NCBI GenBank assembly: GCA_903928565.1
Contig: CAIYRH010000010.1
Coordinates: 41,614-105,613 of the forward strand
Direction: 5' to 3'
Source of the DNA: Candidatus Staskawiczbacteria bacterium
GTDB lineage: Bacteria > Patescibacteriota > Minisyncoccia > Minisyncoccales > Staskawiczbacteraceae
Length of the DNA: 64,000 nucleotides
The stretch's first letter is position 1. Each line of letters opens with the position of its first letter. A program made the position numbers and the translations under genes. Shown one piece after another: positions 2,648-61,102 of this stretch. Under the pieces are notes generated by a model, which worked only from the letters and a program-made list of their open reading frames with translations, ran no database searches and was not told where the DNA came from.

Positions 2648-4342
2648 ATGGAAAATTTAAGCGAAACAAAAGTTTGTCAAAATTGTAAAAAAGACTTTGT
2701 GATTGAGCCTGATGATTTTGCATTTTACGAAAAAATGAAGGTGCCAGCACCTACCTTTTGCCCAGATTGCAGAATGATGCGACGTTTTTTGTGGGCAAGT
2801 AATAGAATTTTATATCGTCAAAAATTTGATTCTGGCGGAGAGGGAATAACGTTTTATCCTCCTGGTAATTTGCATAAAATATATTCGCAAGAAAAATGGT
2901 GGTCTGACGAATGGGACCCCAAATCTTTTGGTAGAGAATATGATTTTTCAAAATCATTTTTTGAGCAGTGGCTCGAGCTTTTCCGAGAAGTCCCACACCC
3001 AACACTTTATACCGCACAATCAACCATGTCCGAAAGTCCTTATTGTAACGGAGCCTCGGAGTTAAAAAATTGCTATCTTTGTTTTAGAAGTGATTTTAGT
3101 GAAAATTGTGCCTATACAAATACAATGTCGAGGAACAAAGATTGTTTTGATGTTGCATTTACGAACGATAGTGAGCTTAGTTACGAGTTAATAAATTCAA
3201 ACAAGTGCTACCGCGCTTTTTGGTCCCAAGATTGTGATGAGTCACATGATATTTGGTTTTCAAAAGATCTTACGGGGTGCTCTAATTGCATTGGCTGTAT
3301 TAATTTAAGGAATCAACAATATCACATACTAAATCAACCGTATACAAAAGAGGAATACATGGAAAAAATTAAAGAATTAAATTTTGGGTCTTTAGAAAAT
3401 ATAAATAATTTTAGAAAAAAAGTACAAGAATTATTTCTTACACAACCTCGCAAGCAATTTCACGGGCGAAAAAATTCGAATGTATCTGGTGATTATATTT
3501 TTAATTCAAAGAATGTGCATAATTCATATATGGGCGGTAATCTGGAAGATGTTAGATATAGCCAATTGCTAAAATCGGGTCCATCGAAAGATGCATATGA
3601 CTATACAATGTTTGGGCTTACTGCCGAGTTGATATATGAATCTGTTTGGGTTGGTCTTACTGCACGAGACGTTAAGTTTAGTTTTTGGAATTATGGCGTG
3701 CATGATTTAGAATATTGCTTTGGTTGTCATGGTTCGGGAAACCTATTTGGTTGCGTTGGGTTAAGAAACTCGGAATATTGTATTTTAAACAAACAATATA
3801 CAAAAGAAGAATATGTAGGGTTGGTTGAGAAAATAAAGAAGCAAATGGCAGAAGTTTCTTATGTTGATTCTAAAAATAATAAATATAATTACGGAGAGTT
3901 TTTTCCAGCTGAATTTTCCCCTTGGGCGTACAACGAAACAAGTGCTTTCGAATTTTTTCCAATTTCTAAAAAAGAGGCAACTGAAAAAGGTTATGCATGG
4001 CGCAACGATAATGAAAAAGATTATAAAGAAGCAACAATTTTGATTGCGGATGATATCAAAAATATTAAAAACGACATTCTTGATGGCATATTAAAATGTG
4101 ACGATTGCGGGAAGAATTATAAATTAATAAAACTTGAGCTTGATTTTTATCGTTTGGTGGGTCTTCCTATACCGAGACAATGCCCTCTTTGTCGCGATAG
4201 GGCCCGTATAAAACAATTAAATCCAATTAAAATTTTTGAGAGCAAATGTGCTAAATGCGAAAAAGATATTGAAACTTCTTATGCACTGGAGCGGCCGGAG
4301 ATTGTCTATTGCGAGAGCTGTTACAACAACGAAGTAGCATAA
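2648..4342 (+). CDS. Cys-rich multi-zinc-ribbon protein, paralog C
   Basis: 564-aa ORF with the same N-terminal ribbon (CQNCKKDFVIEPDDFAFYEKMKVPAPTFCPDCR), the same FGCVGLRNSEYCILNKQYTKEEY box, and the tail CESCYNNEVA. Confidence 0.8.
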   Translation: MENLSETKVCQNCKKDFVIEPDDFAFYEKMKVPAPTFCPDCRMMRRFLWASNRILYRQKFDSGGEGITFYPPGNLHKIYSQEKWWSDEWDPKSFGREYDFSKSFFEQWLELFREVPHPTLYTAQSTMSESPYCNGASELKNCYLCFRSDFSENCAYTNTMSRNKDCFDVAFTNDSELSYELINSNKCYRAFWSQDCDESHDIWFSKDLTGCSNCIGCINLRNQQYHILNQPYTKEEYMEKIKELNFGSLENINNFRKKVQELFLTQPRKQFHGRKNSNVSGDYIFNSKNVHNSYMGGNLEDVRYSQLLKSGPSKDAYDYTMFGLTAELIYESVWVGLTARDVKFSFWNYGVHDLEYCFGCHGSGNLFGCVGLRNSEYCILNKQYTKEEYVGLVEKIKKQMAEVSYVDSKNNKYNYGEFFPAEFSPWAYNETSAFEFFPISKKEATEKGYAWRNDNEKDYKEATILIADDIKNIKNDILDGILKCDDCGKNYKLIKLELDFYRLVGLPIPRQCPLCRDRARIKQLNPIKIFESKCAKCEKDIETSYALERPEIVYCESCYNNEVA

Positions 4343-12879: not shown

Positions 12880-13677
12880 ATGAACAAAAAAATATTTGTA
12901 ATTACGATATTATTAATTATCTCTTTTTGTGTGGCTCCGGTTGTGCTTGCAGAAGTAATGACAACTCAACAGCGCGAGGCTAAAATGGCACAACTTAGGT
13001 TGCAAATAGCCCAGCTTCAGCTACGAATTGCGCAACTAACAGGTTCTGCCGCCCCAAAGTGTACTTCTAATTGGCAAATTGGTTCGTGGAGTATTTGCAC
13101 GGGCAACAAGCAAACACGTATTACCACGGACTTAAATAATTGCTCTACACCAACAAGCAGGCCAGTTGTCACGCAAAGTTGTTCAACAAAACCAATTGAC
13201 ATTAGTGCCAATGGTTCGGACGGTCCGTTGAATATTTTTTTAACAGTGGGAAATGGAGCAACACCAAATGGTGCGGGTGTTAATTTAACTTCAAATGTAA
13301 ATTTGCAGTGGGCTGGAACAAATGTATCTTCATGTGTGGCCTCAGACACTGCAAAGCCAACAGTATTTTCTGGGCACAAAGCATTTTCTGGCAACCAAAC
13401 AGTAACTTTGTCTGGGACAATTCCGGCCACAGCAAGCACAAACAAAATTTCAGCAAATTTTAAAATGAGTTGCGTTTCAACTATTAGCGGTTCGCAAGTA
13501 AGCGACAACATTACCGTAAATCTTTTTTATACAGTTGACGGTTATTGCAACACTAATTGGCAATGCCAGGCATGGAGTGCTTGCGTTTCGGGAAGGCAGA
13601 CTAGAACATGCACAGATTACAGCGGTTGCGGTTCTTTAACCAATAAACCGGCAATAACCCAAGTTTGCACTCAATAG
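12880..13677 (+). CDS. secreted protein with two thrombospondin-type-1-like Cys/Trp modules
   Basis: Signal/TM segment and a QLRLQIAQLQLRIAQL coiled stretch. The modules CTSNWQIGSWSICTGNKQTRITTDLNNC and CNTNWQCQAWSACVSGRQTRTCTDYSGC flank a Ser/Thr-rich middle. Confidence 0.65.
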   Translation: MNKKIFVITILLIISFCVAPVVLAEVMTTQQREAKMAQLRLQIAQLQLRIAQLTGSAAPKCTSNWQIGSWSICTGNKQTRITTDLNNCSTPTSRPVVTQSCSTKPIDISANGSDGPLNIFLTVGNGATPNGAGVNLTSNVNLQWAGTNVSSCVASDTAKPTVFSGHKAFSGNQTVTLSGTIPATASTNKISANFKMSCVSTISGSQVSDNITVNLFYTVDGYCNTNWQCQAWSACVSGRQTRTCTDYSGCGSLTNKPAITQVCTQ

Positions 13678-13686
13678 GGGAAACAC

Positions 13687-13715
13687 TTGACAAGAAATTA
13701 AAACAGACGTATAAT
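13687..13715 (+). promoter_or_regulatory. perfect-consensus sigma70 promoter facing G+C-rich island 1
   Basis: TTGACA (13687-13692), exactly 17 nt spacer, TATAAT (13710-13715). Confidence 0.8.
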
Positions 13716-13748
13716 TGACGCATATTTTAGTTACAGCACATTAACAAA

Positions 13749-13809
13749 GATAGATCATGGCTTAAAGGAAATTTGCCTAAAAGCGGTTTTTTTTGAGCCG
13801 TGATCTATC
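13749..13809 (+). promoter_or_regulatory. long leader hairpin between the promoter and the island-1 ORF
   Basis: 14-bp stem GATAGATCATGGCT / AGCCGTGATCTATC (one G-U pair) enclosing a 33-nt loop that contains a T8 run. Confidence 0.6.
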
Positions 13810-13870
13810 CTAAACCCAAATTGTTCGGATAGAAGTCTCGGTAATGGAAAAAGATCGAAGATAAAAAACC

Positions 13871-14326
13871 ATGAAGAAGGAAATTCCACCCTGGGTAGAC
13901 GAAGAAAAACACCTGACTCGGCCGTTGAGTAACGGCAAAAAACCCCCGGGGTCGAGGATCTACTGCGTTCGTTCCGGTAAGCCGCTGAAAGACGTGGCGC
14001 ATGGGTCCGATCGCTGTCACAAACGGTACGAGATCCACACCATTCTCAGGAACATCGATGAGTTCCGCGAAGGTGATGGAGTATATTCTGTGACGTTCAG
14101 CAGCCAACCCTCTCCGCCGACGGAGGAGGAACTGCGTCATCAACGCCGGCAGTCGCCGCTGTATAAGTGCATCGAAGGTAAGAAATGCAACGTCACCGTG
14201 ACGTCTAATGGCGTTTCTCTCTGGGGCGGGAAGCAACAGAAGGCCCGCCGGCGCCACGGTAGCAAGCGCTGCCGCAAAAACAGCGTTCGCGAACAAGTGT
14301 TCGCGCTCCAACCCCAACCCTGCTAA
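13871..14326 (+). CDS. hypothetical protein encoded in G+C-rich island 1
   Basis: 151-aa ORF. About two thirds of its codons end in G/C (counted by hand: 101 of 151), versus A/T-ending codons in neighbouring genes. No family recognised. It ends ...LQPQPC, inside the CCAACCCCAACCC motif. Confidence 0.5.
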   Translation: MKKEIPPWVDEEKHLTRPLSNGKKPPGSRIYCVRSGKPLKDVAHGSDRCHKRYEIHTILRNIDEFREGDGVYSVTFSSQPSPPTEEELRHQRRQSPLYKCIEGKKCNVTVTSNGVSLWGGKQQKARRRHGSKRCRKNSVREQVFALQPQPC

Positions 14327-14441
14327 CCCTCGCCCCCCAGCACCCACACCCCAGCAAAAAACTTTCCCCGAACAGCCACCCCCTATGGCGGGTATCACTA
14401 AGCAAGCGAAAGCGAGCAAACGTGGTACCCGTCCTATTTTT

Positions 14442-15848
14442 TTATACTTCAAAAGATTGCCCCATTGTTGGAATTTCAACAGGCAATAATGGATAAGATT
14501 TTTCCATTAATTCTTTAAAAACAGTAGCTTGAGGAAGCTCTGTGTGAACTAAAAATAATCTTTGTAAATTTTTAACATGCGCAATGTAAGAAGACAAATC
14601 GTTTTGGTCTGCGTGAGCTGAAAATTCGTGAAGAGTTTTTACTTGTGCCCTAATTTTATATTCTTTTCCATAAATTTTAACTGGACTAATTCCATCCTGA
14701 ATTTTTCTGCCCAAAGTGTCTTCCGCTTGATAACCTGTAATTAAAATTATATTTTGTGGGTTTTCTATATTGTTTTTTAAATGGTGTAAAACCCTGCCAC
14801 CTTCGCACATTCCCGAGGCGCAAATTATCATCATGGGGCCTGGTTTATTGTTTAAAGATTTTGACTCTTCAATTGTGCGCACGTAAGTTAAATTATTTAT
14901 TGAAAATGCCGATTGCCCGCGCGAGCCAAAATCCCTCTGAAAGTTTCCGTTAAAATCTTTTATATATTTTGGAAAAATTTCTGTAATGTTTTTTGCCAAC
15001 GGGCTGTCTATGTAAATTGGAATTGCAGGAATTAATTTTTGGTCTAAAAGTTTGTGTAAAATGTAAATAATGTCTTGTGTTCGGCCCAATGAAAAAGCGG
15101 GCACAATTATTTTACCTTTATTTTTTATTACAGTTGCAATTGCCCCTTTAAAACTTCCGGTGGCGTCGGTAATGGGGCTGTGGTTTTTGTCGCCATAGGT
15201 GCATTCTGTAATAAGCGTTTGCACATCTTCTTGAATGTATTCTGGACGGGGTAAAATAGGGGAATACTCTCTGCCTAAGTCGCCGGTGAAGGCAAGGGTT
15301 TTAACTGTCTCGCCCTCTTTTATTTCCAAGAAAATTATGGCCGAACCCAAAATATGGCCGGCATCGTAAAACTTAAACCGAATGTTTTCATTTAAAGCTG
15401 TCCATTGCCCAGTGTGCTTAAAATAATCTATTGTTTCAAAATGTTCAACAACTTTTAAAACGTCTTGCTCGGTGTAAATGGGAGAAATTTGGTCTGCGGG
15501 ATTTTCTGTGTGCTTGTTAAAATACAGGGCGTCTTGCTTTTGAATTTCGGCGGCATCTAGCATAATATATTTTGCAATTTCGGCGGTGGCTGGTGTGCAG
15601 TAAATTTTCCCCTCAAAGCCGTCTTTAACTAAAATAGGCAGAGTGCCACAGTGGTCTAGGTGAGCATGAGAAAGTATAACAGCATTAATTTCTTTTGGCT
15701 CAAAGGGTAGAGTGCGGTTTAGCCGGTTAGACTCGTCTCTTCTGCCTTGGTAAAACCCGCAATCTAAAAGCAAGTTGTAGCCGTTTGTTTGAATTAAGTG
15801 TTTTGAGCCGGTAACATTTTGGTCGGCTCCTAAAAAGTTTATTTTCAT
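14442..15848 (-). CDS. MBL-fold beta-CASP RNA-metabolising hydrolase (RNase J/CPSF-like)
   Basis: HAHLDHCG metallo-beta-lactamase motif and a beta-CASP layout (FSAHADQNDL near the C-terminus). 468 aa. Confidence 0.85.
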   Translation of the reverse strand: MKINFLGADQNVTGSKHLIQTNGYNLLLDCGFYQGRRDESNRLNRTLPFEPKEINAVILSHAHLDHCGTLPILVKDGFEGKIYCTPATAEIAKYIMLDAAEIQKQDALYFNKHTENPADQISPIYTEQDVLKVVEHFETIDYFKHTGQWTALNENIRFKFYDAGHILGSAIIFLEIKEGETVKTLAFTGDLGREYSPILPRPEYIQEDVQTLITECTYGDKNHSPITDATGSFKGAIATVIKNKGKIIVPAFSLGRTQDIIYILHKLLDQKLIPAIPIYIDSPLAKNITEIFPKYIKDFNGNFQRDFGSRGQSAFSINNLTYVRTIEESKSLNNKPGPMMIICASGMCEGGRVLHHLKNNIENPQNIILITGYQAEDTLGRKIQDGISPVKIYGKEYKIRAQVKTLHEFSAHADQNDLSSYIAHVKNLQRLFLVHTELPQATVFKELMEKSYPLLPVEIPTMGQSFEV

Positions 15849-20388: not shown

Positions 20389-20604
20389 ATGAAATTATGG
20401 AATTGGCTTATATACATAACTAATAATGAAGAAAATTCTAGGCATGAGCAACAATTTGATGTGGCGTTTTTTATTATTAACACGGTTGCGCTAGCTGTAG
20501 GTGTTTATATGTTTATTAAATATGGTGCGCCAGAATGGATTCCAGTGCTTATTATTGAATACACTTGGGCGCTTGATAATTTGCGTAATAATAGAAACTA
20601 TTAA
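20389..20604 (+). CDS. small membrane protein, paralog 2 (MKLWNW family)
   Basis: 71 aa, collinear with 18268-18480. The upstream terminator/spacer module is duplicated as well. Confidence 0.65.
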   Translation: MKLWNWLIYITNNEENSRHEQQFDVAFFIINTVALAVGVYMFIKYGAPEWIPVLIIEYTWALDNLRNNRNY

Positions 20605-20793
20605 AATAAAAAAACTGCCTATTAAAGCAGAAAGGGTGGGTGGTGGCTCAGTCACACATAGCAACTGAGCCACCCTGATTATCTTCGACCCGAGGGGGCC
20701 GAGATCGTGTGCTCCGAAGGCGGAGCAGATTTGGCCTTATGGCCGATTGTGGCGCTTCGCAAAGCGCGTATTCGGCCGGATTCGTTCTTGGCT

Positions 20794-20988
20794 CTACGCG
20801 TTGTCGAGGGGCGCCAAGCCGGCGTGAATGCCGTTCTTAGCAGCGTGGATGTTGATGCCGGCCATGCGGATGGTGGTCGTCGCGTTATTGATTGCGACGG
20901 GGGATTGGTTGGCGATTGCCAGTAGCTGTCGGCCTTCTTGACGTTGAGCATTGGCGATCACGACGTTGTTTTGGCATTTTCGGGCCAT
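20794..20988 (-). CDS. hypothetical 64-aa protein in G+C-rich island 2 (the start could instead be at 21075, giving 93 aa)
   Basis: MARKCQNNVVIANAQRQEGRQLLAIANQSPVAINNATTTIRMAGINIHAAKNGIHAGLAPLDNA. 46 of 64 codons end in G/C, with a strong C bias and an RNY-like pattern. The overlapping ORFs in other frames look like shadows. Confidence 0.5.
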   Translation of the reverse strand: MARKCQNNVVIANAQRQEGRQLLAIANQSPVAINNATTTIRMAGINIHAAKNGIHAGLAPLDNA

Positions 20989-20995
20989 AACGGTA

Positions 20996-21017
20996 TTGGG
21001 GTTGGGGTTGGGGTTGG
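20996..21017. repeat. (TTGGGG)3TTGG tandem repeat, which reads (CCCCAA)n on the coding minus strand
   Basis: Read directly: TTGGGGTTGGGGTTGGGGTTGG. It ends 8 nt upstream of the minus-strand ATG at 20988. Confidence 0.95.
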
Positions 21018-21152
21018 ATTGAATCCAGAATCTCCTTTTGGGAGAATTGCGGCCTACATCCGTAGCCACAACCATAAAGCTCCATTTAGAACCTTGTGGC
21101 TGTGGCTACAATAGAGATTGTTGTTAATGAACTATTGGAAAACATTATATTA

Positions 21153-21181
21153 AGTCTATAAAAAAGCAAATATTGTGTCAA
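21153..21181 (-). promoter_or_regulatory. candidate minus-strand promoter for the island-2 transcript
   Basis: On the minus strand: TTGACA (21181-21176), 17 nt spacer, TAGACT (21158-21153). Confidence 0.5.
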
Positions 21182-21221
21182 GGGGGTTGATGCATAAAAT
21201 ATTTTTTGGTAAAATAAAAAC

Positions 21222-43657: not shown

Positions 43658-44089
43658 ATGAAAAAAAATATTTTGATCGTGAGTATTATTATTTTAATTG
43701 TAGCCGGTGGGGCATTTTATGGTGGAATGCTTTATGGCAAAAGCCAGAATGCGCGCCCAAATTTTGGCAATGGAACTTTCCAAACCAGAATTAATAGGGC
43801 CGGAGCCAATGGGGGTTTTATTTCTGGCACAATACTTTCTAAAGACGCCAGTAGCATTACAGTGCAACTTCAAAATGGAAGCGGTTCAAAAATAATATTT
43901 TATTCAGACACAACATCTGTTGGAAAAATGACTGAAGGTACAGCAAATGATTTGGCGGTTGGAACTTCGGTGAGCGTTATGGGCACAACTAATTCCGATG
44001 GAAGCGTAACTGCTCAAAGTATTCAAATTCGGCCAGCTGGGCAAGGAAAGCCAATGAGCCCATCTTCGGTTGATACAGCTGTTCAATAA
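43658..44089 (+). CDS. membrane-anchored beta-rich protein
   Basis: 143-aa ORF with a TM anchor. Same pattern as 39497-39961. Confidence 0.55.
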
Positions 44090-44102
44090 ATCGTTTTTAA
44101 AA

Positions 44103-44131
44103 GCCCGTGGCTAATTGCCGTGGGTTTTTTC
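44103..44131 (+). terminator. terminator closing the ABC operon
   Basis: 8-bp stem CCCGTGGC/GCCGTGGG (two G-U pairs) followed by T6. Confidence 0.65.
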
Positions 44132-44160
44132 TTGCAATTTTTTTCACTTTGATTTAATCT
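44132..44160 (+). promoter_or_regulatory. candidate promoter of the PurH-like cassette
   Basis: TTGCAA (44132-44137), 17 nt spacer, TAATCT (44155-44160). Confidence 0.5.
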
Positions 44161-44262
44161 AAAAATGATCAACGCGAGGCAGTTCTCGCGCTGACGCATC
44201 TTGATAATCAAGTTCTTTTTTACCAACCCCAACCAAACCAACCCCAATAGGAGGAACACGCC

Positions 44263-45966
44263 ATGAGTACCAACACAGCTACAAAACCCGAGAGGTTTTT
44301 CTTTTTTTCGTTGACCGACAAGGACGGTTCTATTGAATTTGCACGTCGTTTAGTGAATATTGGATGGCATGCATTGAGTGCCGGTGGAACTTGCAAAATG
44401 CTAGCGGAAGCTGGCATTCCCGTACAAGATCTTAAAGACATCGTGAAGGGCGGAGCCATTCTCGGGCACAAAGTTCTCACCTTGTCGCGGGAACTTGCCG
44501 CCAGCCTTCTGGCTGATACACTCGACCCCGAAGAATTGGCTGAATTAGTCAGCATGAATCTACCTTTCGTCGATTTCGTTTATTGCAATTTCTATGACCT
44601 CCAAAAGGCAATCAACGACGCTGCCACGCTCACGCGTGAAGAGGCGATTGCCTTAGTGATCAAGAAATTGGATATTGGTGGCCCGACTATGACGCGTGAG
44701 GCTGCCAAAGGGTTCCGGATTGTTGTTTGTCGCAAACAGGATATGGAGCTCGTGCTCTGTGAACTTGAAAAGACTGGCGACGTTTCAGTTGAAACCCGCC
44801 AAAAACTCCGCGCGCGTGCCGAGTACGAAGTTGCAACGTATGTTGCCAAGTCGGCAGTTTTTCACGGCGACGGACAATTCAATATCATTGCAGGCGAGCG
44901 CGTTTGCACATTCAAGGGCGAAAATGGTCCGCAAAGTCCCGCGGCGCTTTACAGCACTGGTAGCGAGGACCCGTTGGCCCTCGACAAGTTCGAGTTACTT
45001 GCCGGCGCAGATCCCAGCTATAATAATTGGTGCGACGTGACCAGATTGTTGGACACCATGACCCACATTGGTGCTGCATGGAAGTTGAATTTTGGGGAAG
45101 TCCCCACTATTGCCATTGGTGGTAAGCACGGCAACGCGTGCGGTGCGGCGGTAGGAACATTCGTTGCAATTGAAAATGTCGCTCAAAAAATGGTTCGTGG
45201 TGACACCCGTGCCATTTTTGGCGGGCTATGCATGATTAACAAGCCAGTGGACGAGTTTGTGGCGGTGGAAATGGCGAAAGCCATGCCGAGCAAAAAAGCC
45301 ATGTTTGACGGTGTAATTGCTCCGGAATTCGACGCTCGCGCTATTGAAGTGTTGTCGCGGTCCAAAGGCAAATGCCGGTTGATGAAAAATTCCGCATTGT
45401 TCGGATGCTCGGCTATTTTGGACACCGCACCGCGCTTTCGCTATGTGCGGGGCGGTTTCTTGGCCCAGCCCAATTACCGTTTTTTGCTGGATTTCAAAGA
45501 CCCCGATTTGAAGGTTTTCGGAGAACCTCTGGATTTGGAAACGAAAGAAGATTTGTTGCTGGCGTGGGCTATTGGTAGCACGTCTAACAGCAACACCATC
45601 ACTATTGTGAAAGATGGAATGCTCATTGGCAACGGCACAGGTCAGCAAGACCGAGTTGGTGCTGCCGAGCTTGCCATTAAGCGCGCAATTGATGCGGGCC
45701 ACGGCTCGTTTACATGGTGGGGTAAGTTGCTCCGCTTCTTGGGAGTTAACTATACTAAGAACGCACTTAAGGGGGCGGTCGCGTATAGTGATTCATTTTT
45801 CCCATTTGGTGATGGCCCCAAGATGCTACTCAAGGCTGGTGTTGAAACTATCCTTAGTACCAGTGGTAGCGTGAAGGACCAAGAGATTCAAGCCCTTTTC
45901 CTTAAGGCAGGCCGTAGGTTCGTACAGTTGCCCGATAGCAAGGCGCGTGGCTTCTACGGCCATTAA
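44263..45966 (+). CDS. divergent PurH-like protein (MGS-like domain + AICAR transformylase domain) in G+C-rich island 3
   Basis: Collinear with PurH: SLTDKDGSIEFARRL..LSAGGTCKML, LDIGGPTMTREAAKG, GENGPQSPAALY, PSYNNWCD, GKHGNACG, IFGG, GNGTGQQDRV, YSDSFFPFGDG, tail RGFYGH. The cyclohydrolase motifs KTLHP and NLYPF are replaced by LTLSR and NFYDL. AGGAGG lies 8 nt upstream of the ATG. Confidence 0.85.
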   Translation: MSTNTATKPERFFFFSLTDKDGSIEFARRLVNIGWHALSAGGTCKMLAEAGIPVQDLKDIVKGGAILGHKVLTLSRELAASLLADTLDPEELAELVSMNLPFVDFVYCNFYDLQKAINDAATLTREEAIALVIKKLDIGGPTMTREAAKGFRIVVCRKQDMELVLCELEKTGDVSVETRQKLRARAEYEVATYVAKSAVFHGDGQFNIIAGERVCTFKGENGPQSPAALYSTGSEDPLALDKFELLAGADPSYNNWCDVTRLLDTMTHIGAAWKLNFGEVPTIAIGGKHGNACGAAVGTFVAIENVAQKMVRGDTRAIFGGLCMINKPVDEFVAVEMAKAMPSKKAMFDGVIAPEFDARAIEVLSRSKGKCRLMKNSALFGCSAILDTAPRFRYVRGGFLAQPNYRFLLDFKDPDLKVFGEPLDLETKEDLLLAWAIGSTSNSNTITIVKDGMLIGNGTGQQDRVGAAELAIKRAIDAGHGSFTWWGKLLRFLGVNYTKNALKGAVAYSDSFFPFGDGPKMLLKAGVETILSTSGSVKDQEIQALFLKAGRRFVQLPDSKARGFYGH

Positions 45967-45990
45967 GCCAGTTTGGTAAATTTTAAACAG

Positions 45991-46027
45991 GCCTCGTAGC
46001 ACATCACGTGTTGCGGGGCATTTTTTT
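45991..46027 (+). terminator. terminator closing island 3
   Basis: 12-bp stem GCCTCGTAGCAC/GTGTTGCGGGGC (three G-U pairs) followed by A-T7. Confidence 0.75.
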
Positions 46028-46050
46028 GTATAAAAAATACTTGCTAACTA

Positions 46051-46079
46051 TTGACAAGGGGACTTCTATAGAATATAAT
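46051..46079 (+). promoter_or_regulatory. perfect-consensus sigma70 promoter of the marR-efflux operon
   Basis: TTGACA (46051-46056), 17 nt spacer, TATAAT (46074-46079). Confidence 0.8.
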
Positions 46080-46087
46080 AGATAATC

Positions 46088-46112
46088 TAATAGTTAGGTA
46101 ATCAAACTATTA
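46088..46112. promoter_or_regulatory. 8-9-8 perfect inverted repeat, probable MarR operator
   Basis: TAATAGTT-N9-AACTATTA, lying between the -10 element and the marR start codon. Confidence 0.6.
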
Positions 46113-46124
46113 ATTTTCACGCCT

Positions 46125-46544
46125 ATGCAACAAAATGAAAAACTATTATCTGCCATATTTAACGTTGGCAGACTCATAAGAGAAGAAATACATAAAAGCA
46201 ATTGCTTGGCCGATTTTACGCACACAGAAGTGGAAGTTTTGAAATTTTTGCACGGCAAAAAAAGCACAACAATGAAAGCCATTGCCGACTATTTATACAT
46301 AAAGCCATCTTCGGCAACGCCTGTAATTGAAAATTTAGTTGCAAGGGGTAGCCTAAAAAGAATAGAAAATAAAGAAGACAGAAGGGTAGTATATATAGAA
46401 TTAACTCCAAAAGGCAAAAAAACTTTAGAAAATAAATATAAAACTATACGTAAAACCGTAGATAAAATTTTCGGTAAATTAAATGCAAAAGATAAAACAA
46501 TATTAATTAAAATTTTTGAAAAAATTAACGATGAAAATATCTAA
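46125..46544 (+). CDS. MarR-family transcriptional regulator
   Basis: 139-aa winged-helix layout (FTHTEVEVLKFLHGKKSTTMKAIADYLYIKPSSATPVIENLVARGSLKRIENKEDRRVVYIELT). Confidence 0.88.
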   Translation: MQQNEKLLSAIFNVGRLIREEIHKSNCLADFTHTEVEVLKFLHGKKSTTMKAIADYLYIKPSSATPVIENLVARGSLKRIENKEDRRVVYIELTPKGKKTLENKYKTIRKTVDKIFGKLNAKDKTILIKIFEKINDENI

Positions 46545-56267: not shown

Positions 56268-57362
56268 ATGGATTATTACGAGCTTCTTGGGGTGCAGAAA
56301 ACTGCTTCCGAGGACGAAATAAAAAAAGCATTTCACAAATTGGCCCACAAATACCACCCAGACAAAGGCGGAGATGAAAAAAAGTTTAAAGAGATAAATG
56401 AAGCTTATCAGGTACTTTCAGATAAACAAAAAAGAGCTCAGTACGACCAATATGGCAGAGTCTTTGACCAAGGTGGCGCCGATGCTGGCCAAGGCTTTAA
56501 CTGGGCTTGGGGAAACGGTGCACAGGGCGATGGTGCTGAATTTGATATGGGCGACATAGGCGATGTTTTTGAAGAATTTTTTGGCGCCGGAGCATTTGGC
56601 GGAGGCAGAAGGTCTACTAAAAAAGATTCAAGAAAAGGAAAAGACATACAAGTTGACGTTGAATTAAATTTAGAAAGAACATTGAAAGAGTCGGTTGAAA
56701 GAATTAATTTATATAAGCAAGTTATTTGTAACAGATGCGCAGGCGTGGGCGCTGAGCCCGGCACAAAAGTAAAGGAATGTTTTTCTTGCAGAGGAACTGG
56801 ACAAGTTCAACAAGTTAAAAAAACAATTTTTGGGTCTTTTACAACTTTGGGCACATGCCCAGAATGTAAAGGTGAAGGTACAATTCCCGAAAAGCCATGT
56901 AATGTTTGTAAGGGTGAAGGCAGAACAAAAGGGCAAGAAACAATTGAAGTTACAATTCCAGCAGGAATTGACACAAACCAGGTTATAAGAATTGATGGCA
57001 AGGGTGAAGCTGGCAGAAAAGGCGCCAAGGCAGGAAATTTATTTGTGAGAATTTTTGTCAAAAAACATTCTGTATTTGAAAGAAGAGGCGACGACCTATT
57101 TTCTTTTGTAGATGTTAGCTTCCCTCAAGCAGCACTGGGCGATGAAATAGAAATAAAATCTTTAGAGGGCACAAACATTTTGTTGGAAGTTCCTGCAGGC
57201 ACAGAAAGTGGAAAAATTTTAAGAATTTCAGGAAAAGGAATTCCTCATTTTGGAGGATATGGCAAGGGCAACCTATATGTTGAATTTAAAGTTAAGACAC
57301 CCAAAAAATTATCTAGAAAGCAAAAAGAATTATTAGAAAAATTGAAAGAAGAGGGGATGTAA
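56268..57362 (+). CDS. dnaJ: co-chaperone DnaJ
   Basis: J-domain with HPD (KYHPDKGG), a G/F region, and four CxxCxG(x)G zinc motifs. Confidence 0.96.
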
Positions 57363-57373
57363 CATCCCCATTT

Positions 57374-57445
57374 GCTCCCGTAGCTCAATGGTAGAGCAGT
57401 AGCCTTTTAAGCTATTGGTTCCGCGTTCGAGTCGCGGCGGGAGCA
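57374..57445 (+). tRNA. tRNA-Lys (UUU)
   Basis: Acceptor GCTCCCG/CGGGAGC, D loop AATGGTA, anticodon loop CTTTTAA, T arm CCGCG-TTCGAGT-CGCGG. Confidence 0.92.
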
Positions 57446-57489
57446 CACTTAGGCCCAGTTTTTGTTTAATTTAGTAGCCCTTAAAATTA

Positions 57490-57556
57490 TGCGTTCGCCC
57501 GGTGATGAACACCGGGCGTCGGGTGTTTATCACCCGACGAGTCGCGGCGGGAGCAC
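57490..57556 (+). repeat. second copy of the last 25 nt of tRNA-Lys, split by a 41-nt double-hairpin insert
   Basis: GCGTTCG [CCCGGTGATGAACACCGGGCGTCGGGTGTTTATCACCCGAC] GAGTCGCGGCGGGAGCACA, compared with GCGTTCGAGTCGCGGCGGGAGCACA at 57423-57447. Confidence 0.85.
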
Positions 57557-57558
57557 AT

Positions 57559-57586
57559 TAAAAAACGCCTTTTTGGGGCGTTTTTT
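57559..57586 (+). terminator. terminator
   Basis: A6-CGCC-loop-GGCG-T6. Confidence 0.65.
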
Positions 57587-57724
57587 GGTAAATGGGGCAA
57601 AAGGGGGTCGGACTATTGACATCTTTTATCTAATATGGTAGGGTTGAGTATTAATTGGTTTTTAATAATAATTAACTAAGATAAACTAGTAAAAATAGTT
57701 TAAAGAAAATAAAAAGAAAATAAT

Positions 57725-60061
57725 ATGAAAACAATAAATAAATTAATTGTTGGATGCATATTCTTAACGGTCGGAATTGTTACATTGTACGGAAACGCTG
57801 CAATTGTTTTCGCGTGTAACGGAAGTAATCATTCTTATTTGGGATGTAGCGGAGGATCGGTATATTGGTTCGATTCCTGCGATTTCAAAACAGATCTTTA
57901 CCAGCAATGTGCCGCCGACCAAATTTGTCAGTCTGCACACTGCATAACGGTAAATATTGACTGTTATACTAACGCAGATTGCGGAACCAGCGGTTTCGTA
58001 GGAAGCCCATTCTGCCAAGGAAACTCGGTTTACAAGAATTACAAAACATTTACTTGTAACCATCCTGGTACGTTAGATAGCATTTGTACTGACGCCACAA
58101 CAGCTCAGCTTCAAAATACTTGTTCTGGCAGTCAAACATGTTCTAATGGTAGCTGTAACACAATAGTATGTAGTAACGACTCTCAATGCGGAACAGACGG
58201 TTTCGTAGGAAGCCCATTCTGCCAAGGAAACTCGGTTTACAAAAACTACAAAACATATACTTGTAACAACCCAGGAACATCTTCCAGCTCTTGTACAAAT
58301 TCAACTGCAGCTCAATTGCAAAATACTTGTACTGGAAATCAAACCTGTAGCAATGGAAGTTGTTCAGCCGTGGTTTGTAGCACAAACTCAGATTGCGGAA
58401 CTAGCGGATTTACAGGAAGCCCATTCTGCCAAAATAATGCAGTTTACAAAAACTACAAAACATATACTTGTAACAACCCTGGAACATCTTCCAGCACTTG
58501 TACCAACTCTACAGAGGCTCAATTGCAAAATACCTGCTCAGGTAGCCAAACTTGTAGCAACGGAAGCTGTAATTCAATTGCATGTAGCTCAAATAGTGAT
58601 TGCGGAACCAATTCTTTAACGGGCAATCCTTTTTGCCAAGGTGGAAACGTTTATCAAAATTTCAAAACCTACACCTGTAACAATCCAGGAACATCTTCCA
58701 GCACTTGTTCAAACTCAACTGCAGCTCAGTTGCAAAATACTTGTGCATCGGGACAGACTTGTAGCAACGGAAGCTGTAATACAGTAGTTTGTAGTGCAAA
58801 CAGTGACTGCGGAACAAATGGAAGCACTGGTGGTTTATTCTGCCAAGGAAACAGTGTATATCAAAATTTTATAACTTATACTTGTCACAATCCCGGTACT
58901 TCAACCAGCACCTGTTCTAATTCAACAGCAGCCCAATTGCAAACAACCTGTACTGGAAATCAAACATGTAGCAACGGAAGTTGTAGCGCAATTGCTTGTA
59001 GTTCCAATTCTCAATGTGGAACAAACGGAAGCACGGGCGGCCTATTTTGCCAAGGAAATAATGTTTATCAAAACTTTATAACTTACACCTGTAACAATCC
59101 AGGAACATCTTCCAGCTCTTGTACAAATTCAACTTCGGCTCAATTGCAAAATACTTGTACTGGAAATCAAACCTGTAGCAACGGAAGTTGTTCAAATTCA
59201 TGTACTGCAAATTATCAGCAAAGATGCGTTGGAACAAGCATGTATTGGTTTGATTCATGCGGTTCGCAAGGTAGCTATGTAGGAACTTGTGGAAATAACT
59301 GCACACAAAATTATCAGCAAAGATGCGTTGGAACAAGCATGTATTGGTTTGACTCTTGCGGTTCGCAAGGCAGTTATGTAGGAACTTGTGGGAATAACAA
59401 TAACAACACCACGCTAACTGTTACAAAAATGGTTAGAGACCTTACAACAAATACAACTTTTGCAAATTCAACATATGCCAATCCTTCAGATATGTTGATG
59501 TTCATGATTACTGTGCAAGCCAATGGAAATCAAGATGCTCAAAACATTTCTTTAAGAGACACACTTCCAGCAAACCTTATTTACAACAATCAATTAGTTG
59601 TAGCAAGGTCAAATAACAACAATTACAACAATTACTCGGGTGACATAATGTCTGGTTTGAATTTAAATACAATTTCAGCCGGTCAAACAGTTACCATAAC
59701 ATACCAAACACAAGTAGCCGGCGCAACAGCCTTTGTATTTGGAACAACAACTTTAAGTAACCTTGTAAATGTTACCAGTTCAAACACTGGCTATGTTCCA
59801 ACTGCCTCAGCTTCTGTAATTGTTACAAGAGCGGGCGTGTTAGGAGCTTCAACAGTTTCAACCGGTATAACCGATAATTTCTGGATGGATTCGTTTATTT
59901 TGCCTTTATTGTTAACATTAATGGGCATTTGGATGTGGAAGTCTGGAGTATTCTTTGGAATTGAAAAATGGTTTGATAACAAAAAGAAAATTAGAAGGGG
60001 ACACCAAGCAGAAAAAGAATTCTTGCATAGAATTGCCAATATCCAGAAATCTGGAAAATAA
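57725..60061 (+). CDS. large Cys-rich repeat surface protein with a C-terminal TM anchor
   Basis: Signal/TM N-terminus, six 68-69-aa Cys-rich repeats, two 33-aa repeats, a DUF11-like beta region (TVTKMVRDL...), a TM helix and a basic tail. Confidence 0.85.
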   Translation: MKTINKLIVGCIFLTVGIVTLYGNAAIVFACNGSNHSYLGCSGGSVYWFDSCDFKTDLYQQCAADQICQSAHCITVNIDCYTNADCGTSGFVGSPFCQGNSVYKNYKTFTCNHPGTLDSICTDATTAQLQNTCSGSQTCSNGSCNTIVCSNDSQCGTDGFVGSPFCQGNSVYKNYKTYTCNNPGTSSSSCTNSTAAQLQNTCTGNQTCSNGSCSAVVCSTNSDCGTSGFTGSPFCQNNAVYKNYKTYTCNNPGTSSSTCTNSTEAQLQNTCSGSQTCSNGSCNSIACSSNSDCGTNSLTGNPFCQGGNVYQNFKTYTCNNPGTSSSTCSNSTAAQLQNTCASGQTCSNGSCNTVVCSANSDCGTNGSTGGLFCQGNSVYQNFITYTCHNPGTSTSTCSNSTAAQLQTTCTGNQTCSNGSCSAIACSSNSQCGTNGSTGGLFCQGNNVYQNFITYTCNNPGTSSSSCTNSTSAQLQNTCTGNQTCSNGSCSNSCTANYQQRCVGTSMYWFDSCGSQGSYVGTCGNNCTQNYQQRCVGTSMYWFDSCGSQGSYVGTCGNNNNNTTLTVTKMVRDLTTNTTFANSTYANPSDMLMFMITVQANGNQDAQNISLRDTLPANLIYNNQLVVARSNNNNYNNYSGDIMSGLNLNTISAGQTVTITYQTQVAGATAFVFGTTTLSNLVNVTSSNTGYVPTASASVIVTRAGVLGASTVSTGITDNFWMDSFILPLLLTLMGIWMWKSGVFFGIEKWFDNKKKIRRGHQAEKEFLHRIANIQKSGK
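57962..59200 (+). repeat. six tandem repeats of about 207 bp inside the surface-protein gene
   Basis: Unit: CSxNSxCGTxGxxGxxFCQGNxVYxNxxTYTCNNPGTSSSxCxNSTAAQLQNTCxGxQTCSNGSC. Confidence 0.9.
59201..59398 (+). repeat. two tandem 99-bp repeats
   Basis: CT(A/Q)NYQQRCVGTSMYWFDSCGSQGSYVGTCGNN occurs twice, nearly identical at the DNA level. Confidence 0.9.
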
Positions 60062-60070
60062 AAAAAACGA

Positions 60071-60442
60071 ATGACCAATGAAGAATTTGAAAAATTGGTT
60101 GGCGAGGGCATAGATGCCATTGGTGAAAAATTTCTGTCTCGGTTGAAAAACGTTGAAGTAATTATTGAAGACGACCCAACTCCCCAGCAAATGGAGAAAC
60201 TTAAATTACACAACACCCTACTTTTTGGTTTGTATGAAGGCGTGCCCTTAACAAAACGACAATCTTATGGGCAAGTTTTACCAGACAAAATAACAATATT
60301 TAAAAATTCTATTGAACGGGTTTATACTCGCCCCGAAGATATTAGACAAGCAGTTAAAAACACTGTTTGGCACGAAATAGCTCATCACTTTGGAATGGAC
60401 GAAGAACAGGTGAGGGCCGCCGAACATAAAAGAGACAGCTAA
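60071..60442 (+). CDS. zincin-like metallopeptidase-family protein (DUF1025-like)
   Basis: C-terminal WHEIAHHFG (HExxH) in a 123-aa protein. Confidence 0.75.
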   Translation: MTNEEFEKLVGEGIDAIGEKFLSRLKNVEVIIEDDPTPQQMEKLKLHNTLLFGLYEGVPLTKRQSYGQVLPDKITIFKNSIERVYTRPEDIRQAVKNTVWHEIAHHFGMDEEQVRAAEHKRDS

Positions 60443-60443
60443 A

Positions 60444-60472
60444 TAAAAAATCCCCCTTTGGGGGATTTTTTA
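60444..60472. terminator. bidirectional terminator at the convergent gene junction
   Basis: A6-TCCCCC-TTT-GGGGGA-T6, a perfect hairpin with runs on both sides. It overlaps the recR stop codon. Confidence 0.8.
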
Positions 60473-61102
60473 TTTTCTTCCTTCAAGTGCCGACTCTAAT
60501 GTTTCTTCGTCGGCGTATTCAAGCTCTCCACCAACGGGAATACCACGCGCCAGATGTGTAATTCTTCGATTTGGCTCAGAACCTTCGGTTTTAGTCGCCT
60601 GCCAAACTTCTCTTATTATTTGTTCGACAAGTACAGAAGTTGTCCTGCCTTCTGGTGTTGAGTTTAGCGCTACAATTATTTCTGAAAAATTACTAATAGA
60701 TATTCTTTTTTTAAGTTGTTCAATTCTTAATTGACTAGTTTCTTCTGGGCGCATTGTTGCAATAGTTCCACCAAGGATAAAATATAACCCGCTGTATTTT
60801 TTAGTATTTTCAAGTGACAGTAAATCTGTTTCTTTTTCTACAACGCAAAGTAAATTTTTGTTTCTGGCAGGATTCTGACATATCAAGCAAAGCTTGCCCT
60901 GCGCGGAGTCGAAGGGTTCAAACGGGTTAAAACAATTTTCGCATAATTTTATTTTATTTTTTACTTCTAAAATTGCACTAATTAATTCGTCTACTCTTGC
61001 TTTTGGTAACTTCATTAAATAGTAAACAAAACGGCCGGCTGTTCGTGAGCCAACCGTGGGAAACTTTTTAAACAAATTTATTAATTTTTCAACTGAATCC
61101 AT
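60470..61102 (-). CDS. recR: recombination protein RecR
   Basis: N-terminal helix-hairpin-helix (LINLFKKFPTVGSRTAGRFVYYL), a C4 zinc finger, and a Toprim domain. Confidence 0.92.
   Translation of the reverse strand: MDSVEKLINLFKKFPTVGSRTAGRFVYYLMKLPKARVDELISAILEVKNKIKLCENCFNPFEPFDSAQGKLCLICQNPARNKNLLCVVEKETDLLSLENTKKYSGLYFILGGTIATMRPEETSQLRIEQLKKRISISNFSEIIVALNSTPEGRTTSVLVEQIIREVWQATKTEGSEPNRRITHLARGIPVGGELEYADEETLESALEGRK

Follow-up and report, generated by a model that had tools for sequence, protein, structure and literature searches.

Within a 64,000-nucleotide stretch of contig CAIYRH010000010.1 from a Candidatus Staskawiczbacteria genome (hereafter the window, meaning this whole stretch), a single gene on the + strand stands apart from its neighbours in base composition and translation signal, and encodes a 567-residue protein resembling the purine enzyme PurH. 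With a probability of roughly 0.6, we consider that this gene came from a GC-rich lineage by a single old transfer, descended vertically from then on while its composition ameliorated part-way, and encodes a divergent PurH-type enzyme. On this reading the lateral acquisition would have taken place in an ancestor of the Ca. Staskawiczbacteria-like group, prior to the divergence of the sequenced relatives and with a lineage of much higher GC as donor, and the gene would have stayed in one chromosomal slot during its vertical descent. The high G+C content and GC-rich third codon positions, and probably also the Shine-Dalgarno (SD) sequence, would be traits of the donor, about half to two-thirds erased by the AT-biased mutation of the host. 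Transcription would start at the gene's own conserved promoter and end at its own terminator, giving an mRNA with a 5' stem-loop, a C/A-rich spacer and an SD sequence. The enzyme would presumably still convert 5-aminoimidazole-4-carboxamide ribonucleotide (AICAR) and 10-formyltetrahydrofolate to inosine monophosphate (IMP), a step that here perhaps belongs to salvage or a partial pathway, a role proposed because no other pur gene lies nearby (64 kb).

The composition of the gene is atypical of its host. The G+C content of the open reading frame (ORF) is 0.507, against 0.364 in the rest of the window, with values of 0.556, 0.423 and 0.542 at codon positions 1, 2 and 3, and both the total and the third-position value (GC3) lie 2.9 standard deviations above the other 58 ORFs of the window (for GC3, 0.542 versus 0.317 +/- 0.077). 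The elevation extends from about 44170 to 46020, that is, over the transcribed unit of the gene, and the compositional jump reported for this interval by a first-pass annotation of the window was reproduced. Codon bias for expression was considered as the cause of the high GC3 and rejected, as GC3 is ordinary in DnaK and in other conserved genes of the host. In related Ca. Staskawiczbacteria genomes the slot is occupied by the gene with the same excess of 14-17 GC points; gene and flank values were 49.3 and 32.9% in L003 and 54.6 and 38.1% in L005 (L numbers denote loci used for comparison), and in neither of these does a region of about 21 kb contain a strong GC island other than the PurH-like transcription unit.

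An abrupt change in composition, the one point in favour of an assembly chimera or of a contaminant fragment within the contig, was checked at the junctions. In two contigs of independent ENA assemblies (L001 and L002) the window stretches 43857-46106 and 43886-46121, each of which includes the two junctions, recur at 100% identity, and relatives share the arrangement; a junction chimera is excluded by the two assemblies, and we give this explanation as a whole a negligible chance of being correct. In L001 (2251-2389), which is from another assembly of the window's organism, the identity continues through 46106 and is followed by complete divergence inside the marR operator region, which indicates a strain variant that lacks or replaces the marR efflux operon. 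The 27 nucleotides just past the marR -10 box (46080-46106) hold a palindrome, ATAGATAATCTAATAGTTAGGTAATC, that is conserved downstream of the gene in L005 and L008 as well, three genomes in all, and that is probably the MarR operator.

The surroundings of the gene are conserved. Upstream in the window lie genes for HlyD/MacA, an ABC ATPase, MacB-FtsX and a DUF5666 protein (Pfam assignments), and downstream those for MarR and an HlyD-type membrane fusion protein (MFP; also Pfam assignments), followed by orthologs of the YknX and MFS genes of L005. The gene thus sits, as had been claimed, between the terminator of a MacAB-like operon and the promoter of marR, which matches the consensus at 12/12 positions (46051-46079). 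L005, a Ca. Staskawiczbacteria metagenome-assembled genome, has the order MacA, ABC, FtsX, DUF5666, two extra genes, PurH-like, MarR, MFP, YknX, MFS; L008 shares the marR promoter and operator on its downstream side; and in L003, also from Staskawiczbacteria, both efflux operons are missing and the outer neighbours of the gene are those of the window, ferric reductase/cyt-b5 at one end and LiaF/GrpE/DnaK at the other. Identity between flanking orthologs is 67-94% (FtsX 89.5%, MFS 84%, DnaK 93-94%, DnaJ 88%), with MacA (44%) and MFP (60%) less conserved, and the similarity of DnaK places the window in this group of Staskawiczbacteria. The PurH-like protein itself is 59-62% identical between genomes in which the conserved flanking proteins are at 84-94%. 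In the subclade tree (L003,(L008,window)) stand apart from (L005,L011), which agrees with the similarity of the flanking genes. The closest PurH-like relative of the window in the tree, L008 (CAIYOL010000378.1, 2855 bp), is labelled 'uncultured planctomycete'; its flanks are AT-rich (0.34-0.37) and its marR promoter is that of the window. It is probably a misbinned contig from Patescibacteria.

The first-pass annotation had taken the gene for a hairpin-bracketed mobile cassette, foreign to this particular genome and of recent insertion. The sharp GC boundaries at about 44170 and 46020, the gene's own promoter and terminator and an SD sequence unique in the window would suit such a cassette, as would an indel-prone neighbourhood, seen in the two extra genes of L005, the efflux operons missing from L003 and a GC-rich, ParB-like block in L012. 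We nevertheless regard a recent insertion as very unlikely: L005, L008 and L003 carry it, GC excess included, in the corresponding slot although its fourfold-degenerate sites are nearly saturated, its tree is congruent with that of the flanks, and the bracketing hairpins are ordinary terminators. No credible att-like direct or inverted repeats were found in the flanks, no integrase or other mobility gene is present near the gene, no tRNA gene adjoins it (the nearest are at 16 kb and 57 kb), and a scan of viral contigs found no relatives. An empty slot between the ABC operon and marR, which was to be looked for in sister genomes, was not observed; in L005, L008 and L003 the gene is present and syntenic. 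What survives of the foreign-cassette idea is the lateral origin, which is the best explanation of the compositional anomaly. Directly upstream of the PurH-like gene of L012 (7954-9816) there are three GC-rich ORFs (GC 0.50-0.58) that are absent in the sister locus L010, one with an N-terminus that looks ParB-like by eye; the slot beside the gene appears to be an insertion hotspot.

A family search gave more than 2,000 matches, the best 120 of which were examined. All 120 are at least 47% identical, the named ones come mostly from Patescibacteria (Staskawiczbacteria, Moranbacteria), and the window protein forms a long lone branch with 55-64% identity to all of them. Scanning a genome collection with the single protein returned two loci only; 80 further loci were collected. 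The family tree, built by neighbour-joining (NJ) only and rooted on Mycobacterium tuberculosis (Mtb) PurH, splits into clade A (the window, L003, L005, L008, L010-L020, L032 and L036) and clade B. In a comparison over 65 loci, all with 3 kb of flank or more, no copy of the gene was clearly poorer in GC than its flanks (lowest difference -0.6 points), and the excess was above 10 points in 21; of 19 loci examined for GC3, the gene had the highest value of any ORF in 10. The mean excess was +13.3 points in clade A and +5.2 in clade B (Mann-Whitney p = 5e-6). In clade A the GC of the gene follows that of the host (gene GC = 0.62 x flank GC + 28.3, r = 0.86) at an offset of 13.2 +/- 2.7 points, and the regression for GC3 implies a donor GC3 near 0.93. 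A donor-like relative is L018, which is basal, in the NJ tree, to the subclade with the FKGEN motif described below: its flanks have 54-56% GC, its gene 63% and a GC3 of 0.83. Other sister pairs of a GC-rich-hosted and an AT-hosted copy are L014 with L020 and L061/L081 with L048/L080.

How much of an ancestral composition could persist was judged from fourfold-degenerate sites, at which identity is 0.32-0.35 for the PurH-like gene and 0.29-0.59 for flanking genes, all of these genes being near saturation, for which about 0.27 is expected. A non-stationary F81 model with an ancestral fourfold-site GC (GC4) of 0.83-0.95 and 30-55% retention per lineage fits the present GC4 values and the pairwise identities (|z| < 2), and the flanking genes imply a similar retention. 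The claim that selection must hold the GC up was dropped: it had come from a stationary estimate of retention that gave more than 100% ancestral GC, an objection removed by the non-stationary model. Since the gene tree is congruent with the flanks, a basal relative has a GC-rich host and the model fits, one transfer followed by vertical descent is the simplest account, although both the single origin and the direction are things we infer, the direction from compositional disequilibrium and on a tree made by NJ.

The translation signal of the gene is as unusual as its composition. Its AGGAGG is the sole 6-nt SD match among the 59 ORFs of the window; 43 of these ORFs lack any SD-like element, and matches of at least 5 nt occur in three (the PurH-like gene and two host ORFs). 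The statement that none of about 15 inspected host start sites has a comparable signal was thus upheld. The anti-SD motif of 16S rRNA is missing in about half of Parcubacteria (PMC9297842), and the scarcity of SD sequences in the host genes agrees with this reported loss; the 3' end of the 16S gene lies outside the window. Most of the GC-rich orthologs retain SD-like motifs while 70-100% of their flanking genes have none, and the motif is lost in copies whose GC equals that of the host (L029, L054 and L060). A lone strong SD sequence in an otherwise SD-less genome offers a natural test of whether these ribosomes use SD pairing.

Several of these results count against an old transfer with neutral decay. 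The model demands a very GC-rich ancestor (GC4 of at least 0.83, best about 0.95) and a transfer shortly before the radiation, and its fit is permissive, not decisive. Fourfold sites of the gene have an A frequency of 0.16 where host genes have 0.32, and yet T has almost reached the host level, a pattern not predicted by simple neutral decay. In addition, the SD sequence is kept in 6-7 of 8 AT-hosted leaders although the remaining leader sequence has diverged, a retention indicative of selection, at least for this one donor-like trait. It could be, then, that high G+C, C-ending codons and the SD sequence are all kept by selection or by GC-biased gene conversion, as a steady state and not a relic, possible reasons being SD-dependent translation or a stable, structured mRNA in an AT-rich, SD-less host. 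The steady offset of clade A and its dependence on host GC, the fact that fourfold sites are near randomised and yet have a GC4 of 0.46-0.60, and the extent of the GC-rich stretch, which is that of the transcript and not of the ORF alone, all accord with such a steady state. However, neutral decay that starts from a GC-rich ancestor accounts for these numbers without selection, and the GC3 offsets within clade A range from +0.04 (L013) to +0.34 (L020); moreover, the copies in L029, L054 and L060 are fully blended or GC3-poorer than their hosts, DnaK and similar highly expressed host genes show no elevation of GC3, and a basal relative in a GC-rich host exists. Maintenance by selection or gene conversion is therefore, in our judgement, improbable as the general explanation.

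The gene is taken to be intact and monocistronic, and its product is a divergent protein of PurH type with the fold of AICAR transformylase/IMP cyclohydrolase, the enzyme of the last two steps in IMP synthesis. Pfam recognised an MGS domain (PF02142, residues 24-125, 34.9 bits, cutoff 24.1) and an AICARFT_IMPCHas domain (PF01808, residues 147-474, 155.4 bits, cutoff 25). The NCBIfam PurH equivalogs NF002049 and TIGR00355 aligned end to end but stayed below their cutoffs (276.1 versus 402 and 238.4 versus 528 bits). In a sequence search of the PDB, Mtb PurH matched at 167 bits, and identity to solved PurH structures is about 28-34%. An AF2 model had a mean pLDDT of 93.5 and a pTM of 0.90, its sole soft region being the mobile 61-80 loop that carries the replaced Lys66 discussed below, and the top 21 Foldseek matches were all PurH/ATIC (Mtb PurH, TM-score 0.74-0.80, E = 4e-42). 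The description of the protein as divergent, PurH-like and collinear over two domains thus held, and so did each motif that had been read from it: LTLSR in place of KTLHP, NFYDL in place of NLYPF, and the transformylase landmarks KHGNACG, GTGQQDRV and SDSFFPFGDG.

The transformylase catalytic pair, Lys267/His268 in human numbering (PMC9525906), corresponds to K288/H289 within KHGNACG and shows no variation among 121 family members; GQQDRV and SDSFFPF are likewise invariant in the family. For the cyclohydrolase the key residues are Lys66, Tyr104, Asp125 and Lys137, which are kept even in archaeal PurH2 (PMC3261824). Three of these four are present in the window protein, and Tyr104 (Y111), Asp125 (D137) and Lys137 (K149) are invariant in the 121 members, whereas Lys66 is Leu72 in the window and V, L, K and A in 107, 7, 5 and 2 members of the family, respectively; L003, the closest syntenic relative, has Lys. 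Around this position the pocket is rewritten throughout the family, with GRVKTLHP changed to GHRV[V/L]TLSR (GHKVLTLSR in the window), NLYPF to D[F/L]YPL and AAKN to AAKG. The altered cyclohydrolase pocket is not peculiar to this protein.

The genomic company of the family points to an enzyme of the purine pathway. Among 104 immediate neighbours of family members scanned against Pfam, we found Lyase_1 in 10 and ASL_C in 5 (adenylosuccinate lyase), SAICAR synthetase in 4, PurA, PurE and GMP synthase (GuaA) in 2 each and IMPDH in 1, and all copies adjoining purB, purC, purD, purE or purF carry a GHRVVTLSRE pocket in which Lys66 is Val. A pocket without Lys66 is thus what PurH normally has in those purine gene clusters, and since it is shared with members of such clusters, replacement of Lys66 alone is no sign of lost function; the rewritten pocket is probably compatible with IMP synthesis. 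The earlier suggestion that, with its altered landmarks, the protein may no longer be a standard PurH could not be maintained on those landmarks alone, as the signature is conserved in more than 120 proteins, some of them in purine operons. We found no description of this PurH variant in the literature on the Candidate Phyla Radiation (CPR); the subfamily is an uncharacterised variant of PurH, mostly from Patescibacteria and not named by the NCBI curated models, and a PurH subfamily without the 'essential' cyclohydrolase lysine, and with exchanged AICAR contacts in one clade, bears on how purine capacity is annotated in CPR genomes. In L068 (7596-11805) and L071 (916-5125) an entire PurH-PurB-PurC cluster is elevated in GC (0.41-0.47, flanks 0.31-0.37), which suggests that multi-gene purine modules have also been transferred into AT-rich hosts. 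The PurH-like copy of L026 (2715-4318) is interrupted near 3143 by an in-frame stop and is a pseudogene unless the assembly is in error.

As regards the enzymatic half of our reading, the scores below both NCBIfam equivalog cutoffs are one adverse point, and the clade to which the window belongs gives others. The residues that contact AICAR, Arg208 and Tyr209, form part of an RYGEN motif (PMC3261824). Both are replaced in the window, where the motif reads FKGEN, and throughout its subclade, where it is FKGEN or PKGEN, whereas clade B retains KYGEN or RYGEN; this change had escaped the first-pass annotation. Loci of clade A never adjoin pur genes (0/13, against 12/45 in clade B; Fisher p = 0.05), and the earlier statement that the window holds no other purine gene stood in so far as none was found within the 64 kb by motif scan, which is the only support for it. 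The substrate of this clade may consequently differ, and the clade-specific change to FKGEN or PKGEN is the best reason to doubt standard PurH function.

The stand-alone clade might accordingly be a neofunctionalised paralog of PurH that retains the fold and the Lys-His catalytic pair but has turned to another nucleotide or to a non-catalytic function and no longer converts AICAR to IMP. Besides the exchanged AICAR contacts, confined to the subclade, and the missing pur neighbours, the replacement of Lys66 and the low identity of the protein (59-62%) next to that of conserved flanking proteins would fit such a change, and a non-enzymatic role of PurH is known, in a Methanosarcina 50S dimerisation factor (PMC12605026). 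Yet the remaining catalytic and binding landmarks are invariant, the Phe-Lys pair retains one basic and one aromatic residue at the site, scattered pathway genes are usual in small genomes, the Fisher test is borderline, other flanking proteins (MacA, MFP) diverge equally, and an alternative substrate has no direct evidence. We hold neofunctionalisation to be doubtful, and the stand-alone FKGEN clade may still make IMP from AICAR. A bolder form of the idea, which we offer as a long shot, is that the FKGEN/PKGEN clade is a repurposed PurH, privately regulated and SD-translated in otherwise SD-less genomes, working on another nucleotide or in a ribosome- or nucleotide-sensing role. If so, its substrate might be, for example, a salvaged imidazole or purine intermediate, or its role might be like that of the Methanosarcina PurH-aEF2 hibernation factor, and the GC-rich structured mRNA with a C/A-rich leader common to two other GC-rich orphan units of the genome would mark a small, specially translated set of genes.

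The old-transfer reading, by comparison, overturns nothing in current understanding and describes a fairly ordinary old gene transfer; its interest is that it gives a dated and quantified case of a laterally acquired metabolic gene in a reduced genome of Patescibacteria, syntenic yet compositionally foreign.

The gene forms a self-contained transcription unit, as had been claimed, with promoter, leader and terminator of its own (Table 1). Its left boundary is the terminator of the upstream MacAB-DUF5666 operon, which lies outside the PurH-like unit and is absent from the listing of our consensus scan. The candidate promoter also falls below the threshold of that scan, so that the earlier assignment fails on the consensus and stands on conservation: its layout (TTGCxx, a T-rich spacer and a TG-n-TGTAATCT-like -10 box) is kept upstream of the orthologs in L003, L005, L008, L010, L012, L013 and L020, the -10 box of the relatives being similar to TAATCT and often preceded by TG. 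The module common to the relatives consists of the terminator of the upstream gene, the promoter, a stem-loop 10-14 nt further on, the YATYGAnAAY block, a spacer and the SD sequence. Homologous terminators and 3' untranslated regions occur in relatives too, and the 12-bp terminator reported for the gene itself was found as described.

Table 1. Position of the PurH-like gene and its signals in the window.
Feature	Position	Strand	Description
Intrinsic terminator of the upstream MacAB-DUF5666 operon	44100-44131	+	Hairpin GCCCGUGGC-UAAUU-GCCGUGGGU followed by a U-run, -15.7 kcal/mol
Candidate promoter of the PurH-like gene	44132-44160	+	TTGCAA (44132-44137), 17-nt spacer, TAATCT (44155-44160)
Conserved 5' leader stem-loop (hairpin 1)	44173-44190	+	CGCGAG-GCAGTT-CTCGCG, -9.9 kcal/mol
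Conserved block YATYGAnAAY, here TCTTGATAATC, with weak hairpin CTTGA-TAA-TCAAG (hairpin 2) and T-run	44197-44221	+	Block kept in 8-9 leaders
C/A-rich tract ACCAACCCCAACCAAACCAACCCCAA	44222-44247	+	Immediately 5' of the SD sequence
SD sequence AGGAGG	44249-44254	+	8 nt before the ATG
PurH-like coding sequence, 567 aa, predicted MGS-like/IMP cyclohydrolase-like N-domain and AICAR transformylase domain	44263-45966	+	Pfam, NCBIfam, structure model, family alignments
Intrinsic terminator of the PurH-like gene	45991-46027	+	12-bp stem (45991-46019) followed by a T-run, -20.8 kcal/mol

The leader had been described as having two hairpins, the second resembling an attenuator, and only the first of them held up. 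In a hand-anchored alignment of eight clade A leaders, hairpin 1 pairs in 58/64 cells, and at least two canonical pair types occur at 6/8 positions, as in the stems CGCGAG/CTCGCG of the window, CCCAAG/CTTGGG of L003, GTCGGAG/CTCCGAC of L010 and GCCAAAA/TTTTGGC of L013. RNAalifold gave -11.95, and the stem is part of the minimum free energy fold in 7/8 leaders. This covariation concerns one simple stem in an alignment made by hand; automatic alignment with MAFFT followed by RNAalifold predicted no structure, because the loop lengths differ. Hairpin 2 (44200-44212, CUUGA-UAA-UCAAG) has a stability of only -2.3 kcal/mol and is not a credible attenuator. Rfam gave nothing meaningful at E <= 10 over 43900-46300, and nothing above noise for the leader, the terminator and the two further GC-rich islands described below. 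Given the lack of an Rfam match and the weakness of hairpin 2, an attenuator or riboswitch leader is not supported. On a conservative reading the leader comprises a 5' stabilising stem-loop and a further conserved site, and hairpin 1 fits a 5' stabiliser at least as well as a sensor. A CA-rich tract related to that of the window is also found in the leader of L003.

Two other GC-rich islands occur in the window. In the second (13680-14460, + strand) a consensus promoter is located near 13688-13716 and the leader is structured; its ORF (13871-14326, 151 aa) has a GC of 0.56 and a GC3 of 0.66, no Pfam match, and a self-match only in the homology search; independent assemblies are 98.4-100% identical in this region. 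The third (20600-21190, - strand) has the same layout as the PurH-like leader, with a TTGACA promoter near 21179, two hairpins of which the second is small, a (CCCCAA)3 tract (20996-21017) and an ATG at 20984; the homology search gave no homologs of its ORF, the island has no Rfam match, and folding of its 3' part (20605-20800, - strand) gives consecutive hairpins (-78.7 kcal/mol, z = -5.15). The only sequence common to the three islands is the exact 12-mer CCAACCCCAACC, present in four copies in the window (14308, within the C-rich 3' tail of the second island, 21000, 21006 and 44223) where 0.22 are expected, a number reached in 0/100 shuffles. It is confined to the islands, two of which have it directly 5' of the start codon. 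The 12-mer may be a leader element, a trace left by a shared donor, or a G-quadruplex formed by the other strand. Elsewhere in the window, the cumulative GC skew peaks near 57-58 kb, close to a tRNA-Lys gene (57374), and genes switch to the - strand from 60470, so that the region of about 57000-60500 may be a replication origin or terminus. Compared with the window, L091 lacks 62 bp (13173-13234) inside the ORF at 12880-13677, an indel polymorphism.

Compositional genomic islands that arise by horizontal transfer and ameliorate with time, a concept due to Lawrence and Ochman, share with the PurH-like gene the atypical GC and GC3, the foreign-looking translation signal, a basal relative in a GC-rich host, partial convergence in GC and a fit to neutral decay. 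Unlike them, the present case is a single gene with no mobility genes, att repeats or tRNA anchor, and it is syntenic at nearly saturated synonymous sites. As an enzyme, the protein resembles PurH/ATIC (TIGR00355, PRK00881; PDB 3zzm, 1g8m, 1pkx) in its two-domain architecture, its fold, the Lys-His pair, Tyr104, Asp125, Lys137, SDxFFPF and GQxxRV, and in having relatives in purine operons; it differs in its low identity and sub-cutoff scores, in its stand-alone gene, in the family-wide changes of Lys66 to Val/Leu, KTLHP to VTLSR and AAKN to AAKG, and in the exchange of Arg208-Tyr209 for Phe-Lys in its clade. The N-terminal MGS-like/IMP cyclohydrolase-like domain is also similar to ForH of the formycin pathway (PDB 6nko; 50 bits, domain TM-score 0.83-0.86), but ForH is a single-domain protein from an antibiotic gene cluster, whereas the window protein has both domains and no biosynthetic-cluster context. 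For the lone AICAR-to-IMP enzyme of Korarchaeum cryptofilum, salvage of AICAR from the environment or from a partner has been suggested (PMC3261824); the window likewise has an enzyme of AICAR-converting type without the rest of the de novo pathway nearby, although it is of PurH type and not one of the archaeal PurP-type enzymes, and it is 'lone' over 64 kb. Finally, PurH of Methanosarcina acetivorans sits with aEF2 in a 50S-dimerising hibernation complex, a moonlighting role (PMC12605026). This protein (PDB 9ou7, chain DA) is the best structural match by query-normalised TM-score (0.77), and, unlike the window protein, it keeps the canonical KTLHP and NLYPF.

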